From a virus, in UHGV virus genome UHGV-1749955: a stretch of DNA of 20,578 bases. The stretch is one strand, 5' to 3'. This document shows, one piece after another, positions 1 to 20,578 of this stretch; the first letter of the stretch is position 1, and each line of letters begins with the position of its first letter. Under the pieces are notes generated by a model that had not been told where the DNA came from, ran no database searches, and saw only the letters and a program-made list of their open reading frames with translations. A program made the position numbers and the translations under genes.

Positions 1-3000
1 GCTGATCGTCATAAACCCTGACGGTAATGGTCCCTGATGGCCACCGCTCCGGTGCCCGGGAGTCACGGGGGAAAGCTTTGCCCACTGTTTTAACGAGATC
101 GCCTTCAATCTGGTTCGCGGACAGTTTTCCCAGAACCCGACAGTTCTCGTTAATCGTGACGTTGTTGAGCGTCCCGGAGTTCGCATTCACGTTACCGCTG
201 ATATCGGCATTTTTCGCCGTCAGCCGCCCGTCCGGTGTCAGGGAAAATGCCGGAGGATTACCGCCGCTGGTAATGGTGGGAGCCGTCAGATATTTCAGGA
301 ACACTTCGTTCATGAATATCTGATCGCCCTGACCAACAAACATCGGCTTTGTGTTGCCATTCGCAGGATTAATCATCGCAATCCTGTCCGCCGCCAGCAG
401 CACCTGACTCTGCATACCGTCAGGGGTATTCTCAATACCGGCACCAATACCCGCGATATAAAGGCGTCCGTCCTGCATCTGCTGCAGCTTCACAGCCCAC
501 ATGCTGTTCAGGTTATTATTTGTATCAACCTGAACCTTCTGTATCTGCTGAATTGCCGCACTCTGGTCTTCCAGTTTCTTATTGACGGTCTGCGTGATTT
601 CATTGCTGACATCCGTAATGGACGTCCTGATTTCAGCCAGGTCAGGCGCAAGCTGACCGTTATCAATCTGCGTCCACAGCTCCTGAGCCAGATGGGTTTT
701 CCCTATCTCGCCTTTGAAAAAATCCAGATAGCCGGATGCATCATCACTCGGCTGACCAACAGCCTCCACGAATGCCGATTTGCCAACGGTGTTCACACTG
801 CGAACGTAAAAATAATAATCATGGCCCGGTTTGATATTGATACTGGCGGCTATCCAGTACAGCGCCGTGCCAAGATAGCGGGCTGTGGTTTCAACCTGCC
901 TGATATCCGCAATCCGCTTTTCCGAGAACCAGAACTCAAACTGTACCGTCGGGTCATAAACGGCAAGATGCGGCGTGGCGGTTATCTGAAAATAGCCCGG
1001 CGTCAGCTCAATCCGCGACGGTGCTGCCGGTGCGGCAATCCGGAACGATACCGACGCCGGATCGCCCTGCTGCCCCCACGCATTTACCGCCCGGACTGTC
1101 AGCCTGTAGTTCCCCAGCGCCAGTTGCGTGAAGCGGTATGTGGTTTCCGTCGTCCGGGCCGTGCTGACCAGCCGCTCACTGCCGTCATCCGCTGCCACGG
1201 TCAGGCGAAGCATAAAGCTCACGCCCTTCACCACCTTCGGCGTGTCCCAGCGCGCCAGCACCTGATATTCCCCGCTGTCTGCGGTGACTTCGGCAGTCAG
1301 GTGCTGCACCGCTGGCGGCGTGACACCATTCACCGTGCCGCTCTGGTCGCCGTCAAAGTGCGCCCCGTTATCCACGATGGCCTCTTTTTCCGGTACATGC
1401 TGCACGGCGGTGATGGCATACGTGCCGTCATCGTTCTCACGGATACTCACGCAGCGGAACAGGCGCTGGCGCAGCGTCGGCAGCTTCAGCCCCCACACGC
1501 TGTATTCGGCAACGCCGTCAGGAACACGGCTCACTTTCACCTTCACGCCGTCGGTGACGGACTGGACCTCCACGCTGACCGGATTACCCTGCCCGTCAAC
1601 CAGGCTTATCAGCGTGGTGCCGGAGGATGGCAGCGTGATTTCACGGTCGAGCGTCAGCGTCCGGGTCTGGCTGTTCACCGCCAGCACGCGACCACCGGTG
1701 CTGATACCGGCATAGTCATCATCGCAGATTTCAATGACATCGCCCGGTACATGGCGAAGCCCTTCAGCACCCACGCTGAAATCCACGGTCTGCGTCTCCA
1801 GCAGTTCCGTTTTAATCAGCCACAGCCCGGCGCGGTGTGCCTGCCCCCGGCTGGTACAGCCAAAGGCATCCATCTTCGTGACGTTACGACCGTAACGGGC
1901 AATGGCCTGCGTGTCCTCCACAAGCTCTGTCGCCGTCTCCCAGCCGTTATCCGGGTCAATCCAGTTCACCTCAACGGCATTATGGCGGTCCTTCAGGGCG
2001 CTGAAGCTGTAGCGGAACGGCGCGCCATCATCCGGCATCACCACATTACTGCGGTTATAGGTCCACACCTTATCCGACGGTCGGTCCTGCACGAACGTCA
2101 GCGTCTGCCCGTTCCATACCGGCATACAGCGCATCGCCGAGCAGAAATCACTGAGCACATCCCACGCCTTGCGCTGTGTGGTCAGGTACGCATTACAGGT
2201 GATGCGCGGCTCCGTGCCGCCAAAGCCGTCCGGCACTGACTGGTCGCAGTACTGGCCGATGACATACAGCGCCCATTTATCCACATCCGCCGCACCAAGA
2301 CGTTTCCCCATGCCGTAGCGCGGATGGGTCAGCATATCCCACAGACACCAGGCCATGTTGTTGCTGTATGCTGGCTTAAACGTTCCGTCCCAGATACCGC
2401 TGTATTGCCGCGTCTGCGGGTTATAGTTCGACGGCACCTGCAGAATACGCCCGCGCAGATGATAATTACGGCTCACCTGCTGGCTGCCGAACTGCTCCGA
2501 ATCCACCTGTACGCCGACCAGTGCCGTGTTCGGGTAGCACTGTTTCACATCGATGATTTCGGTGTATGACGACCAGAGCGTTTTGTTCTGCAGCTGGTCT
2601 GTGGTGCTGTCCGGCGTCATCCTGCGCATCCGGATATTGAACGGGCGCGGCGGCAGGTTATCCACCACCACCGAGGCCAGATACTGCGAGGTGGTTTTGC
2701 CCTTAATGGTGATGTCTTTTTCCGTCACCCAGCCACCGTTACGCTGTATCTGAACCAGCAGGCGGACTTCCGACGGATTCCGGTCCCCCTTTGAGGTGGT
2801 TTCCACCAGTGCCTGCACACCGAAGGTAAAGCGCAGACGGTCGATGTTTGCCGACGTGATGGTCCGGGTGATCGGCGTGTCGTATTTCACTTCCGTACCC
2901 AGCACCGTCTCGGAGCCGGAGGATTCAAATCCCTCCGGCGGTGTCTGCTCCTGCTCACCTGCCCGGAACACCACCGTGACGCCGGATATATTGGTATTCC

Positions 3001-3169
3001 CCTCACTGTCCAGCACCGGCGTACTGTTCAGCAGCACGCTTTTTAATCCGTCCACCGGACCTTCAACCGGCCCTTCGCTGATGGCATCGATCACACTCAG
3101 CAGCTGCGTGGACTTCAGGTTGTCCTTCGCTTCGCGCGGGGTATGCCCCTTACTGCTGCCTTTACCCAT
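1..3169 (-). CDS. J: Tail tip / host-specificity protein J (central tail fibre), N-terminal ~1056 codons; 3' part lies beyond the left window edge
   Basis: ATG at 3169-3167 on the minus strand, with GGAG about 9 nt upstream. My hand translation begins [53 protein letters not shown], which I recognise as lambda J. The frame stays open to position 1; the track lists no minus-strand ORF here, consistent with no stop inside the window. Position after I matches lambda. Confidence 0.92.
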
Positions 3170-3191
3170 TCGTCATGCTCCATAAACGACA

Positions 3192-3211
3192 AAACCGCCC
3201 GCAGGCGGTTT
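3192..3211 (-). terminator. GC-rich stem-loop in the I-J intergenic gap (AAACCGCC-cgca-GGCGGTTT), followed on the minus strand by UGUCGUUU; terminator-like or RNA-stabilising hairpin
   Basis: Perfect 8-bp inverted repeat read directly from the sequence; it lies between the I stop (3230) and the J start (3169). Confidence 0.4.
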
Positions 3212-3229
3212 CACATAAAACATTTTGCA

Positions 3230-3901
3230 TCAGCGACCAATCACCACAACCTGACCACCATCCCCTTCGTCTGCCGTGCTGATCTCCTGAGAAACCACGC
3301 GTGACCCCACGCGCATTTCACCGTACAGAACAGGCAGAACATTGCCCTGGGCAACCATGTTATCCAGTGAGGAGAAATAGGTGTTCTGCTTACCGTTATC
3401 CGTTGTCTGTGTACGGGGAGTTCTGGCTTTCGGTGCCAGCATCTGCGCCACACCACCGAGCACCATACTGGCACCGAGAGAAAACAGGATGCCGGTCATA
3501 CCACCGGCCCCAATGGCTGCCCCCCATGCTGCAAGGGTGGCTCCGGCGGTAAAGAATGATCCGGCAATGGCGGCAGCCCCCAGGACAATCTGGAATACGC
3601 CACCTGACTTGGCCCCGGCGACTCTGGGAACAATATGAATCACAGCGCCATCAGGCAGAGTCTCATGTAACTGCGCCGTTAACCCGGACGTGCTGACGTC
3701 CCGCCCGGCAATCCGTACCTGATACCAGCCGTCGCTCAGTTTCTGACGAAACGCCGGGAGCTGTGTGGCCAGTGCCCGGATGGCTTCAGCCCCCGTTTTC
3801 ACACGAAGGTCGATGCGGCGGCCAAATCGTTGTAAATCCCCGTAAAGGCAGATGCGTGCCATGCCCGGTGACGCCAGAGGGAGTGTGTGCGTCGCTGCCA
3901 T
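3230..3901 (-). CDS. I: Tail tip assembly protein I
   Basis: 223-aa ORF (MAATHTLPLASPGMARICLYGDLQRF...QVVVIGR) recognised as lambda gpI; its 5' end overlaps the 3' end of K by about 100 nt, as in lambda. Confidence 0.93.
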   Translation of the reverse strand: MAATHTLPLASPGMARICLYGDLQRFGRRIDLRVKTGAEAIRALATQLPAFRQKLSDGWYQVRIAGRDVSTSGLTAQLHETLPDGAVIHIVPRVAGAKSGGVFQIVLGAAAIAGSFFTAGATLAAWGAAIGAGGMTGILFSLGASMVLGGVAQMLAPKARTPRTQTTDNGKQNTYFSSLDNMVAQGNVLPVLYGEMRVGSRVVSQEISTADEGDGGQVVVIGR

Positions 3902-4542
3902 TTGTCGGTATACCTCTCTCGTTTGCTCAGTTGTTCAGGAATATGGTGCAGCAGCTCGCCGTCACCACAGTAAATGGCGGCATGATTCGGCACCGATGAA
4001 CCAAAACAGCACAGCAGCACATCGCCCGGCTGCGCCGCTGACAACGGCACCTGATACAGCCCTGTGGCCTCCAGATTATCCAGATAGAGATTCTGACCGT
4101 GACGCCACCAGTCATCCTCGCGATGAAAATCCGGCATCTCAATCCCCGCCAGATGGTAAGCATCCCGGAACAGCGTGTAACAGTCCGTCACCCCGTGCTC
4201 AAAGCGCCGCCCGGTAAGATGTGGCACACAGCGGAACTTGTGAATCGCCCCCCGGCAGACCAGCCACCACGGCAAATCACTCTGCACCTGCAGCCGCCGG
4301 TCGGCCTCACTCAGCCAGGGCAGACCACCGGGGTGGCTGTGGACCAGCGCCACAATCTCACCCTGCATCTCTGCCTGCAGCCAGTCTTCCGGCGACATAC
4401 GGAAATACGCCTCCGGCTCACCGGAGATATTCACGCAGGGGAAATATCTTTCCCCCTCCGGCGTTCTCACCACGAAGCCGCACGACTCCGCTGGCGCACA
4501 TCGCCGGGCGTGCGCCAGAATCGCTGATTCTGTCTCTGTCAT
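3799..4542 (-). CDS. K: Tail tip assembly protein K, long form with MPN/JAMM-type motif (E-x-C-G ... H-S-H-x7-S-x2-D)
   Basis: 247-aa ORF; its C-terminal 199 aa (MSPEDWLQAEMQGEIVALVHSHPGGLPWLSEAD...) match lambda gpK as classically annotated. The ATG at 4542 is 5 nt after the L stop, and the extension carries AESCGF, a plausible JAMM catalytic Glu. Start choice is uncertain (4542 versus internal Met at about 4398). Confidence 0.85.
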   Translation of the reverse strand: MTETESAILAHARRCAPAESCGFVVRTPEGERYFPCVNISGEPEAYFRMSPEDWLQAEMQGEIVALVHSHPGGLPWLSEADRRLQVQSDLPWWLVCRGAIHKFRCVPHLTGRRFEHGVTDCYTLFRDAYHLAGIEMPDFHREDDWWRHGQNLYLDNLEATGLYQVPLSAAQPGDVLLCCFGSSVPNHAAIYCGDGELLHHIPEQLSKRERYTDKWQRRTHSLWRHRAWHASAFTGIYNDLAAASTFV

Positions 4543-14267: not shown

Positions 14268-17948
<3,681 letters not shown>

Positions 17949-17974
<26 letters not shown>

Positions 17975-18494
17975 TCAGCAACCCCGGTATCAGTTCATCC
18001 AGCGCGGCTGCTTTGTTCATGGCTTTGATGATATCCCGTTTCAGGAAATCAACATGTCGGTTTTCCAGTTCCGGAAAACGCCGCTGCACCGACAGGGGGA
18101 TCCCGTCGAGAATACTGGCAATTTCACCTGCGATCCGCGACAGCACGAAAGTACAGAATGCGGTTTCCACCACTTCAGCGGAGTCTCTGGCATTTTTCAG
18201 CTCCTGTGCGTCGGCCTGCGCACGCGTAAGTCGATGGCGTTCGTACTCAATAGTCCCTGGCTGGAGATCTGTCTCGCTGGCCTGCCGCAGTTCTTCAACT
18301 TCCCGGCGCAGCTTTTCGTTCTCAATTTCAGCATCCCTTTCGGCATACCATTTTATAACGGCGGCAGAGTCATAAAGCACCTCATTACCCTTGCCACCGC
18401 CTCGCAGAACGGGCATTCCCTGTTCCTGCCAGTTCTGAATGGTACGGATACTCGCGCCGAAAATGTCAGCCAGCTGCTTTTTGTTGACTTCCAT
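17949..18494 (-). CDS. Nu1: Terminase small subunit Nu1
   Basis: 181-aa ORF (MEVNKKQLADIFGASIRTIQNWQEQGMPVLRGGGKGNEVLYDSAAVIKWYAERDAE...) recognised as lambda Nu1; it sits next to cosB as expected. Confidence 0.95.
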
Positions 18495-18671: not shown

Positions 18672-18684
18672 AGGTCGCCGCCCC
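18672..18684. other. cosN: 12-nt cohesive-end sequence (reverse complement of GGGCGGCGACCT), junction of phage left and right ends
   Basis: Plus strand AGGTCGCCGCCC followed by cgtaacctgtcggatcaccggaaaggacccg, the reverse complement of the lambda right-end sequence ...GGGTCCTTTCCGGTGATCCGACAGGTTACG. Confidence 0.85.
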
Positions 18685-18882
18685 GTAACCTGTCGGATCA
18701 CCGGAAAGGACCCGTAAAGCGATAATGATTATCATCTACATATCACAACGTGCGTGGAGGCCATCAAACCACGTCAAATAATCAATTATGACGCAGGTAT
18801 CGTATTAATTGATCTGCATCAACTTAACGTAAAAAAAACTTCAGACAATACAAATCAGCAACACAGAATACGGGACAACCTC

Positions 18883-19116
18883 ATGTCAACGAAGAACAGA
18901 ACCCGCAGAACAACAACCCGCAACATCCGCTTTCCTAACCAAATGATTGAACAAATTAACATCGCTCTTGTTCAAAAAGGGTCCGGGAATTTCTCAGCCT
19001 GGGTCATTGAAGCCTGCCGCCGGAGACTGTGCTCAGAAAAAAGAGTTTCGCCTGAAGCAAACAAAGAAAAGAGTGACATTACTGAATTGCTCAGAAAACA
19101 GGTTAGACCAGATTGA
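18883..19116 (+). CDS. Small ribbon-helix-helix (Arc/MetJ/CopG-like) DNA-binding protein, 77 aa; resembles the ynfO/ybcW-type proteins next to cos in E. coli cryptic prophages (assignment from memory)
   Basis: ATG at 18883 (MSTKNRTRRTTTRNIRFPNQMIEQINIALVQKGSGNFSAWVIEACRRRL...): basic N-terminal arm, a beta-strand motif R-N-I-R-F-P, helix A, a G-S-G-N-F-S turn, then helix B, the RHH pattern. The track's GTG start at 18754 has no RBS and is rejected. Confidence 0.6.
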   Translation: MSTKNRTRRTTTRNIRFPNQMIEQINIALVQKGSGNFSAWVIEACRRRLCSEKRVSPEANKEKSDITELLRKQVRPD

Positions 19117-19173
19117 AGCAATCTAGATAATCGTGCAGACTACGCCCCCTCATATCACATGGAAGGTACTACA

Positions 19174-19584
19174 ATGGCTCAGGTTGCCATTTTTAAACAA
19201 ATATTCGATAAAGTGCGAAATAATTTAAACTATCACTGGTTTTATTCTGAACTAAAACGTCACAATGTCTCACATTACATTTACTATTTAGCCACAGAGA
19301 ATATTCATCTTGTTCTTGAAAACGATAATACGGTTTTAATAAAAGGACAGGGTAAGGTTGTAAATGTAAGATTTTCAAAAAATAAATGCCTTATAGAAGC
19401 CACCTTAAAAGGATTCAAATCAGGAGAGTTATCATTTTACGAATACAGGAAAAATCTTGCTACAGCAGGGGTTTTCAGATGGATTACAAATATCCACGAA
19501 AACAAAAGGTATTACTATACCTTTGATAATTCATTACTCTTTACTGAGAACATTCAGAACACTACACAAATATTTCCGCACTAA
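19174..19584 (+). CDS. Hypothetical prophage protein, 136 aa, probably the ydfO/ybcV-like (DUF1398-type) family; function unknown
   Basis: ATG at 19174 preceded by GGAAGG about 7 nt upstream ([67 protein letters not shown]...); the track's ATG at 19159 lacks an RBS. The family assignment is from memory of K-12 Qin/DLP12 genes next to nohA/nohD and needs a database search. Confidence 0.65.
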
Positions 19585-19830
19585 ATCATAACGTCCGGTT
19601 TCTTCCGTGCCAGAACCGGACTCGCTGGCATGATGAAATATGTGTACCCGGTAACCCCGGTGTGCATCGTTTTTGATTATTCCCGCACACTCGCGCAGAA
19701 GGAGTTCCCCGTCGGGCTACGGTCTCTGTTAATACGGGAACACGGCGACGATACAGCGCATGATGTGTCAGGCTTGAATACCTTTATCCTTTAAAAGGGA
19801 TATCAGTTAAGTTATCCCGTGTAGGGTATA

Positions 19831-19866
19831 AGCCATTATCAAAGCCACTCAGTAGCGAATGGCTTT
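19831..19866 (-). terminator. Stem-loop just downstream of the minus-strand membrane-protein ORF (alternative 7-bp stems AGCCATT/AATGGCT or AAAGCCA/TGGCTTT); weak terminator candidate
   Basis: Inverted repeats read directly from the sequence, about 10 nt after the stop at 19876-19878; the U-tract is poor (UUUGAUAAUGG). Confidence 0.3.
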
Positions 19867-19875
19867 TGTAATGGA

Positions 19876-20214
19876 CTATTTAATTAGTGATGCTGCGTAT
19901 TCGATTAGATATAACTTAGGTGCCAACCAGATTTTTAACCATGTCATATTGGTTACTACAGCAATAATAAAACTTACCCACAGAACAAAAACTGCTGCTA
20001 ATGGTAAGATAAGAAAACTAATCTCACCGTTACTTTCCCAAATCATAGTCGGTTTGTATTTAGGCTTTCCCTTCTCCCATGACCATCCTTCATTATCGAA
20101 TATACCAATTTCAACTTTTTGGTACTGTTTTTTCATAAACCAGAAAACCAGCGGGATTGTTGAAATGGCTATTAATGTTTTAATCAGGCTATCAACCATA
20201 TTCCATACCAGCAA
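19876..20214 (-). CDS. Small predicted two-transmembrane membrane protein (107-112 aa), function unknown
   Basis: ORF MLVWNMVDSLIKTLIAISTIPLVFWFMKKQYQKVEIGIFDNEGWSWEKGKPKYKPTMIWESNGEISFLILPLAAVFVLWVSFIIAVVTNMTWLKIWLAPK...: two hydrophobic helices separated by a Lys/Glu-rich loop. Sits in AT-rich DNA; the track start is TTG at 20214 and the first ATG is at 20199. A fully overlapping plus-strand ORF (19859-20218) makes the strand assignment uncertain. Confidence 0.45.
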   Translation of the reverse strand: MLVWNMVDSLIKTLIAISTIPLVFWFMKKQYQKVEIGIFDNEGWSWEKGKPKYKPTMIWESNGEISFLILPLAAVFVLWVSFIIAVVTNMTWLKIWLAPKLYLIEYAASLIK

Positions 20215-20324
20215 CTGATGAACAACATCCGGAATCTGAGCCTGACTGAATGCAATGGCGAATCAATTCCATCGCTGGCCTTCTTCAATAAATCAACAAG
20301 AATTTTATTTGCTTCTTCTTGCAT
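20184..20324 (-). CDS. Small ORF (46 aa from ATG 20324; track gives 61 aa from TTG 20369) overlapping the 5' end of the membrane-protein ORF in another frame
   Basis: MQEEANKILVDLLKKASDGIDSPLHSVRLRFRMLFISCWYGIWLIA; AGGA about 7 nt upstream of ATG 20324; its stop at 20184-20186 overlaps the next ORF by about 30 nt. It may be a coupled small gene or the front half of a frameshifted gene. Confidence 0.3.
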   Translation of the reverse strand: MQEEANKILVDLLKKASDGIDSPLHSVRLRFRMLFISCWYGIWLIA

Positions 20325-20578
20325 GTTTATATCCTGTAAGTTGTAAGCCTGTTCGAGAAAAATAAACAACTACGAGAGACAGAAAAAATATCTCAGGCTC
20401 TCTTTCTATAAGCTTTTAGTTGAGGATGTTCTGCAAAACAAAACTGGTTAGTTATGTAACTGCTTCCGGAATACAACAGCCGACGTGCTACAACGTAAAA
20501 TTCGCTTGATTGTGGCAGTTGAGGAAACAGACTTGCATTTCTCAACATCATCAATAATGACCACATCCGGTACAGGAA

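Follow-up and report, generated by a model that had tools for sequence, protein, structure and literature searches.

Virus genome UHGV-1749955, analysed here as a single stretch of 20,578 nucleotides (nt; hereafter the window), carries two small adjacent genes, a ynfO-like gene and a gene of the DUF1398 family, which occupy positions 18883-19584 and read from the cohesive-end site (cos) towards the lysis genes. We find that these are, on balance, probably two autonomous accessory genes that have become neighbours by chance at a variable, cos-proximal 'moron' spot, and not the parts of a two-component system. This departs from a sequence-only reading of the same DNA, which had presented them as a conserved module made of a ribbon-helix-helix (RHH) DNA-binding protein and a larger partner, possibly an antitoxin with its toxin or a repressor with its effector.

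Judged from sequence comparison, both open reading frames (ORFs) are real genes and not chance frames, because their products match known families, the variable sites of ynfO are biased by codon position, and the ratio of nonsynonymous to synonymous polymorphism (pN/pS) of DUF1398 agrees. The first gene (18883-19116, plus strand, ATG start in the ORF list) codes for a protein of 77 amino acids (aa) of the YlcI/YnfO family, with matches to Pfam DUF3950 (E = 2e-20, 72.8 bits, cut-off 25), to the NCBIfam YlcI/YnfO model (YlcI_YnfO_N, NF041551; E = 9e-9, 35.2 bits, cut-off 30) and to PHROG 949. It is 97% identical to YnfO of Escherichia coli K-12 and the same as YlcI over its first 49 residues, beyond which the tail differs, and its variable sites fall 6/7/21 on the three codon positions. 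The second gene (19174-19584, plus strand) was called from the ORF list, Pfam and the solution structure of YdfO by nuclear magnetic resonance (NMR), and codes for 136 aa of the YdfO/YbcV/lambda p78 family. Its product covers Pfam DUF1398 (PF07166) from profile position 1 to 119 of 119 (E = 3e-43, 147 bits, cut-off 22), aligns with that structure (PDB 2HH8) over residues 1-135 (E = 3e-67), and shows 75% identity with YdfO, 77% with YbcV and 76% with lambda p78. The family assignments of the sequence-only reading, a ynfO homologue followed by a ydfO/ybcV-like protein, are thus confirmed by these matches, and the ORF list and the sequence bear out its description of the two frames, the 57-nt gap between them, the GGAAGG ribosome-binding site of the second and their strand opposite the late genes.

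Among DUF1398 alleles pN/pS is 0.29 overall, with 0.25 in residues 1-54, 0.50 in residues 55-90 and 0.14 in residues 91-136. Positive selection on the variable centre was considered and rejected, since the value of 0.50 found there indicates relaxed and not positive selection. In E. coli strain 3359, RefSeq annotates proteins that are 100% identical to the two products. The genes, the fact that they are neighbours and the lack of a known function are in fact already on record for the K-12 prophages, for lambda and across thousands of genomes; the window holds one more copy of a catalogued arrangement, and nothing about the window itself is new in this respect. As the sequence-only reading had stated, no established function of either gene is reported in the literature that we searched.

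The distribution of the two genes does not follow that of a conserved pair. Among 50,697 phage records the N-terminal domain of YnfO is present in 153 and DUF1398 in 43, and in 5426 complete E. coli genomes ynfO occupies 9549 places in 4184 genomes against 4312 places in 3234 genomes for DUF1398, with over half of the ynfO copies in these genomes lacking a DUF1398 gene of the window clade. On its own, ynfO is found in about 80 Shiga toxin (Stx) phages and at no fewer than 5200 E. coli loci, and its excess in the phage records is mostly due to Stx-converting phages, as at locus L241, where DUF3950 stands alone beside HNH and small terminase subunit (TerS) genes. DUF1398 likewise occurs without ynfO. 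At one group of loci (L131-L152) a DUF1398 gene whose product is 72-74% identical adjoins Nu1 and cos, and unrelated DNA replaces the stretch that runs from cos to a leader of about 70 nt, which is itself conserved; in a group of lambdoid prophages (L153-L160, at about 3896-4430) a divergent and longer DUF1398 protein of 159-177 aa is encoded next to cos, again with no ynfO. The N-terminal extension of these longer proteins begins MFNFYITHSDLSPPDC. Finally, strain VTB96815v has the same cos but neither ynfO nor DUF1398, and the genes that lie downstream of the pair in the window come immediately after cos there. The sequence-only reading had named beforehand the failure of the two genes to be conserved as a pair as an outcome that would speak against it, and this is largely what we found: each gene is often alone, and the co-occurrence counts do not support a conserved two-gene module.

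DUF1398 genes that are more distant still (25-45% identical) stand as orphans between housekeeping genes, flanked by long intergenic stretches; their neighbours include genes for adenosine deaminase, an NlpA lipoprotein, glyceraldehyde-3-phosphate dehydrogenase, a sulphur transporter and an acyltransferase and, in a Salmonella-type prophage remnant, sopE2. K-12 itself has a third, non-prophage paralogue, ycgX (PMC3509220). At a further set of loci (L123-L130 and L156, at about 1535-3336), prophage contigs about 55 kb long hold, close to their end, a DUF1398 gene whose product has about 53% identity with the metagenome homologue P0276 and, about 700 nt away, a divergent gene for a SopE-family type III effector (SopE_GEF, E = 2e-69), also without ynfO. 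With 189 relatives among 1.84 billion representative proteins, most of them fragments, DUF1398 is by sequence a small family centred on enterobacteria. The first scan of viral contigs had returned 80 near-identical loci, and the broader set was obtained with a second alignment led by a distant member; a scan of bacterial genome contigs with a shallow alignment returned only Escherichia, Shigella and lambda contamination, and gives no taxonomic breadth.

A second line of evidence comes from the region preceding DUF1398. The homology common to all cos-adjacent DUF1398 loci begins at GACCAGATTG, about 70 nt before the ATG, whatever lies 5' of it, and this conserved leader contains a GGTnnnACC palindrome. 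In the window it takes the form of a PdhR-box-like palindrome, AACAGGTTAGACCAGAT (19097-19113, plus strand), placed within the last codons of ynfO, 61 nt before the start of DUF1398, and one mismatch away from the PdhR site reported for ynfO>ydfO by genomic systematic evolution of ligands by exponential enrichment (gSELEX), a method that located PdhR sites at both ynfO>ydfO and ybcV<>ybcW (PMC7660256). The distance to the start codon is 61-62 nt in the window, in Qin (ydfO) and in DLP12 (ybcV). Overlapping the box, a consensus scan picked out a promoter-like TAGACC-16 nt-GATAAT (19104-19131, plus strand, with GATAAT at 19126-19131), which is a pattern match only and whose GATAAT is shared with lambda. 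A Shine-Dalgarno-like GGAAGG (19161-19166, plus strand) precedes the ATG at 19174 by 7 nt; the first ATG of the longer frame, at 19159, would give 141 aa.

Published expression data complete this picture: ybcV mRNA is down 10-fold in a pdhR mutant (PMC7660256), ydfO rises 12- to 116-fold on ionic-liquid shock (PMC4077768) and responds to DicC (PMC11430063), and a sabinene-tolerant strain has raised levels of ybcV. The cryptic prophages of K-12 thus transcribe their DUF1398 genes under host control without being induced; for ynfO, no comparable expression data were found in the literature. To the extent that the alignments can tell, the PdhR box and a control region of its own travel with the DUF1398 gene.

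These results bear directly on the idea that the two genes form a toxin-antitoxin or repressor-effector operon, in which YnfO would repress transcription through an RHH domain and neutralise through its tail a DUF1398 toxin or abortive-infection effector, to be freed upon phage attack. Several features are in keeping with such a design. The genes are adjacent, on the same strand and 57 nt apart, in a prophage accessory hot spot; they are constantly linked in the clade closest to the window; YnfO has an antitoxin-like layout, with a predicted N-terminal DNA-binding domain and a variable tail with a helix at residues 63-72; and the structural neighbours of its model include the RHH antitoxins MazE4/6/7/9, RelB and TacA. 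However, most small RHH entries of the PDB are antitoxins, which makes such neighbours unspecific, and thousands of loci carry one gene but not the other, a state in which a toxin could not persist. In lambda and DLP12 the two are separated by an opposite-strand gene, which also takes the place of the YnfO tail, DUF1398 comes with a control region of its own, and its homologues have been overexpressed and purified (the ASKA clone and the NMR sample). Pfam reveals no toxin family, and none of the PADLOC-DB 2.0 defence models gave a significant match to either protein, with nothing below E = 0.01 and Csx23 as the best hit (E = 0.023, 12.7 bits). Two properties expected of type II toxin-antitoxin systems also fail to appear: we saw no obligate co-inheritance in the 5426 E. 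coli genomes and 50,697 phage records, nor a single tightly coupled autoregulated operon, the 57-nt gap being accompanied by a promoter-like site and a PdhR box between the genes. Because of the solo loci, the splitting by p79/ybcW, the separate control region of DUF1398 and its overexpression and purification, we consider a toxin-antitoxin design unlikely, with a slim chance at best, and set aside the antitoxin/toxin or repressor/effector proposal of the sequence-only reading.

As for YnfO itself, it is predicted to be a soluble and very basic protein (isoelectric point, pI, 10.9) with no membrane segment, composed of an almost invariant basic domain (residues 1-50) and a variable tail (residues 51-77). 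Within this otherwise invariant domain the most variable position is residue 30 (18970-18972), which is a valine in the window and a glutamate or aspartate in most relatives. An AlphaFold2 monomer (predicted local distance difference test, pLDDT, 70) shows an extended segment at 13-18 and helices at 19-32 and 34-52. The motif TRNIRFP-x14-G-x4-S falls in register with QFNLRWP-x14-G-x4-S of Arc and HFNFRMP-x14-G-x4-S of Mnt, so that N14 and R16 of YnfO align with the base-contacting N11 and R13 of Arc; strong matches to Arc-like PHROGs confirmed the Arc and Mnt sequences used here. The RHH pattern claimed by the sequence-only reading is supported in part, by its register with the strand, helix A and helix B of Arc and Mnt, but the scores are weak. 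An hhalign comparison with Arc/Mnt selects the same register at P = 0.02, which is not statistically significant, and a profile of Arc relatives from a word-index protein search gathered close relatives only and did not improve this significance. Foldseek of the YnfO model against the PDB returned nothing below E = 7, and no RHH family was matched in PDB sequence searches, in Pfam (E <= 10) or in PHROGs (E <= 10), the sole hint in the profile searches being a HicB-like family at E = 0.29.

We regard an Arc/MetJ-type RHH fold for the N-terminal 50 residues as plausible from sequence register and model together. If so, these residues would form an RHH dimer with N14 and R16 on the DNA-reading beta-ribbon and a flexible basic arm in front, and YnfO may be a sequence-specific DNA-binding regulator. 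In comparison with Arc and Mnt of phage P22, YnfO is alike in motif register, hhalign register and predicted secondary structure, but its basic N-terminal arm is longer, its C-terminal tail is variable, and its gene lies at the cos end and not in an immunity region.

The DUF1398 protein is predicted to be soluble and basic (pI 9.4), with no signal peptide or membrane segment (maximal 19-residue hydropathy 0.39). Profile searches of the PDB retrieved 2HH8 only, a predicted model was too poor for use, and an internal duplication is not significant by sequence (z = 0.95). The G+C content is 31-32% in this gene and about 43-45% in ynfO, against 53-56% in the late genes, a low value that is typical of acquired cargo. 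The gene is also dispensable: CRISPR interference (CRISPRi) shows lambdap78 to be non-essential, its knock-down having no effect on plating (PMC10695390), a ybcV::Kan strain is in routine use and lambda recombinants across the region are viable (PMC3945230), and the ASKA ybcV overexpression clone was recovered and has a glycogen phenotype (PMC2853380).

PHROG 413 and RefSeq phage records (NC_001416, NC_019723) label DUF1398 proteins as 'head protein' or 'putative envelope protein', the latter being the label of lambdap78. Such a virion or envelope component is something we judge to be exceedingly improbable. Database labels are all that speaks for it, whereas the gene is antisense to the late operon from which all virion proteins derive, lambda p78 is non-essential, the protein has neither a signal peptide nor a membrane segment, the gene is AT-rich cargo, and orphan chromosomal DUF1398 genes exist. 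To our knowledge, moreover, the lambda head is completely explained by known proteins. Both labels are unsupported. The annotated lambdap78 is a 177-aa protein whose GTG start reads through the conserved leader; from the alignment, this start is probably too far upstream, and the conserved form would be the one of 136 aa beginning MAQVAIF.

A role during infection is another reading to be weighed. The right cos end of lambda is packaged last and enters the cell first, and genes with promoters of their own that are placed there and oriented inward might be expressed first from the entering end and act in takeover or against host defences; the position and orientation of these two would fit. A precedent lies next door, where the lambda neighbour p79 (YbcW) activates, or is sensed by, the Vulcan NADase defence, and in phages that escaped Vulcan recombination with Qin had removed p79, leaving the ynfO-ydfO arrangement of the window, as a 2026 preprint reports (bioRxiv 10.64898/2026.09.04.749371). 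The mosaic DUF1398 alleles, in which pN/pS is higher in the centre (0.50) than in the flanks (0.14-0.25), would also fit. On the other hand, pN/pS stays below 1 throughout DUF1398, one family member, ycgX, is an orphan of the chromosome with no phage nearby (PMC3509220), host PdhR regulates DUF1398 in cryptic prophages that never infect, and p78 knock-down by CRISPRi leaves plating unaffected; we see a counter-defence or takeover function as rather improbable. The same holds for the more specific proposal of a role in phage-host conflict, to which we would give only an outside chance, with YnfO as a regulator of the RHH type linked to the packaging end, both in lambdoid phages and in capsid-forming satellites, and DUF1398 as a fold-unique effector that blocks or provokes host immunity. 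Were it true, some of the last lambda genes without an assigned function would turn out to act in defence or counter-defence, with p79 and Vulcan as the parallel.

The reading of two autonomous genes that we prefer may be put as follows. The segment between cos and the lysis genes would be a lambdoid variable accessory spot that happens to hold both ynfO and DUF1398. The latter would be a separate transcription unit, preceded by a promoter-like site of its own and, about 61 nt before its start, by a host PdhR box; dispensable for lytic growth and AT-rich like foreign cargo, it may produce a soluble cytoplasmic protein that tunes host physiology or stress tolerance during lysogeny. Several points weigh against this. 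In the clade closest to the window (DUF1398 about 100% identical, in IMG/VR and genome loci) the YnfO domain lies about 290 nt upstream of DUF1398 in every locus with sufficient sequence, as compared with about 850 nt in lambda-type loci, and this linkage holds even where Nu1 is only 35-56% identical; a functional link between the two genes within this clade is compatible with these data. The RHH assignment is based on the weak scores noted above. In addition, frequent cos-adjacent recombination (PMC3945230), and not strong constraint, may be what keeps ynfO nearly identical across phages.

With ynfO in 77% and DUF1398 in 60% of the 5426 complete E. coli genomes, any function that is found would apply very widely. 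They have homologues in phage lambda itself and count among the uncharacterised 'y-ome' of E. coli, and they are best studied as two separate units.

The surroundings of the two genes are those of a lambda-like late region in reverse, with tail and head genes, terminase and Nu1 all on the minus strand. The gene for the large terminase subunit lies at 16049-17974 and Nu1 at 17949-18494, and between Nu1 and ynfO lies the cosN cohesive-end sequence, the end mark of the packaged chromosome (18672-18683, minus strand), read on the plus strand as AGGTCGCCGCCC; on the other strand this is GGGCGGCGACCT, the cohesive end of lambda. Its position bears out the orientation, from cos to the lysis region, given by the sequence-only reading. 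A repeat search also identified, 5' of ynfO, the inverted repeat ATCAATTA-N17-TAATTGAT (18781-18813), a candidate operator or promoter element. It is kept in all lambda-type loci, as is the entire segment between cos and ynfO, and was not found in the Stx-phage ynfO locus L241. It is the sole repeat 5' of ynfO and would be the one candidate site for YnfO, but its conservation is inseparable from that of the cos flank as a whole and it is missing from the Stx-type locus. Just 3' of the DUF1398 stop, a hairpin GTCCGGTT...AACCGGAC (19592-19620, plus strand) with no U-tract would be a weak terminator at best: it folds no better than shuffled sequences (z = -1.1) and was not called in a terminator scan, and Rfam and terminator checks of the region found nothing.

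Beyond DUF1398, positions 19653-20578 hold an AT-rich, minus-strand module of two genes, of 149 aa and 286 aa, the second of which leaves the window; no Pfam or PADLOC match was obtained for either. In VTB96815v (L245, 2724-4157) this module, a further cargo of the hot spot, adjoins cos directly, ynfO and DUF1398 being absent. Compared with that strain, the window is one C short at about 20259, within the gene at 19876-20325 (minus strand), reading GATTCGCC in place of GATTCCGCC. The missing C frameshifts the 149-aa protein, a predicted membrane protein, into the ORFs 19876-20214 and 20184-20369, and the gene is a pseudogene unless the loss is an error of sequencing. The window cargo is replaced in E. 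coli strain 3359 by a GIY-YIG nuclease gene (L002, 7664-8152, minus strand) between DUF1398 and the lysis genes, and the cos-proximal spot is therefore highly variable.

Assemblies labelled as Pseudomonas, Kitasatospora, Brevibacillus, Flavobacterium, Cohnella, Shewanella and others (L011-L037) carry contigs of about 3.5 or 48.5 kb with the lambda right end, whose size and identity to lambda suggest leftover sequencing-control DNA. The record 'Campylobacter phage CJLB-4' (MW057783.1) has a lambda-type ybcV, whose product is 76% identical to the window protein.

Among known systems, the closest to the window is the nohA-ynfO-ydfO arrangement of the Qin prophage, a parallel that the sequence-only reading had correctly drawn. 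The lengths are identical in both, with a 77-aa DUF3950 protein, a 57-nt gap and a 136-aa DUF1398 protein, and the genes diverge from that of the small terminase subunit; YnfO is 97% identical and the PdhR box is equally far from the start of DUF1398. The two loci differ in their DUF1398 alleles, which are 75% identical with divergence concentrated in residues 55-90, and in what follows, namely gnsB, ynfN and cspI in Qin as opposed to the 149-aa and 286-aa minus-strand module in the window.

The second parallel, given as nohD-ybcW-ybcV of DLP12, was mistaken in its middle term: the counterpart of the small protein is ylcI, and ybcW is an unrelated gene on the opposite strand, the order being nohD, ylcI, ybcW (opposite strand), ybcV and borD. 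Lambda and HK630 are organised as DLP12, with cos, a 64-aa YlcI ORF, p79, p78 and bor, and lambda p79 (on the late strand; L001, 748-954, minus strand; L244, 4381-4587) is 100% identical to K-12 YbcW. The YlcI ORF of HK630 (JQ086376; L001, 389-583, plus strand), intact and 100% identical to K-12 YlcI over its 64 aa, is unannotated, and the matching stretch of lambda carries no feature in J02459 (about 48142-48336, complement) or in NC_001416, although some newer lambda-like records annotate it. Lambda and DLP12 resemble the window in families, strand, position between cos and the lysis genes, leader and PdhR box. They differ from it by an opposite-strand p79/ybcW cassette of about 520 bp that splits the pair and leaves YlcI with a different and shorter tail (64 aa), and by having bor or borD next on the same strand.

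The lambda genes bor and lom, finally, offer a comparison for the kind of gene involved. Like them, ynfO and DUF1398 show the features of phage morons, with a G+C content of 31-45% against 53-56%, variable presence, a non-essential p78 and a promoter-like site, the last as a pattern. The bor and lom morons are similarly AT-rich and non-essential, have their own promoters and lie within or antisense to late operons, and bor in lambda is directly downstream of p78 on the same strand. They differ in coding for outer-membrane proteins with known serum-resistance and adhesion phenotypes, whereas YnfO and DUF1398 are predicted cytoplasmic proteins that lack a defined phenotype.

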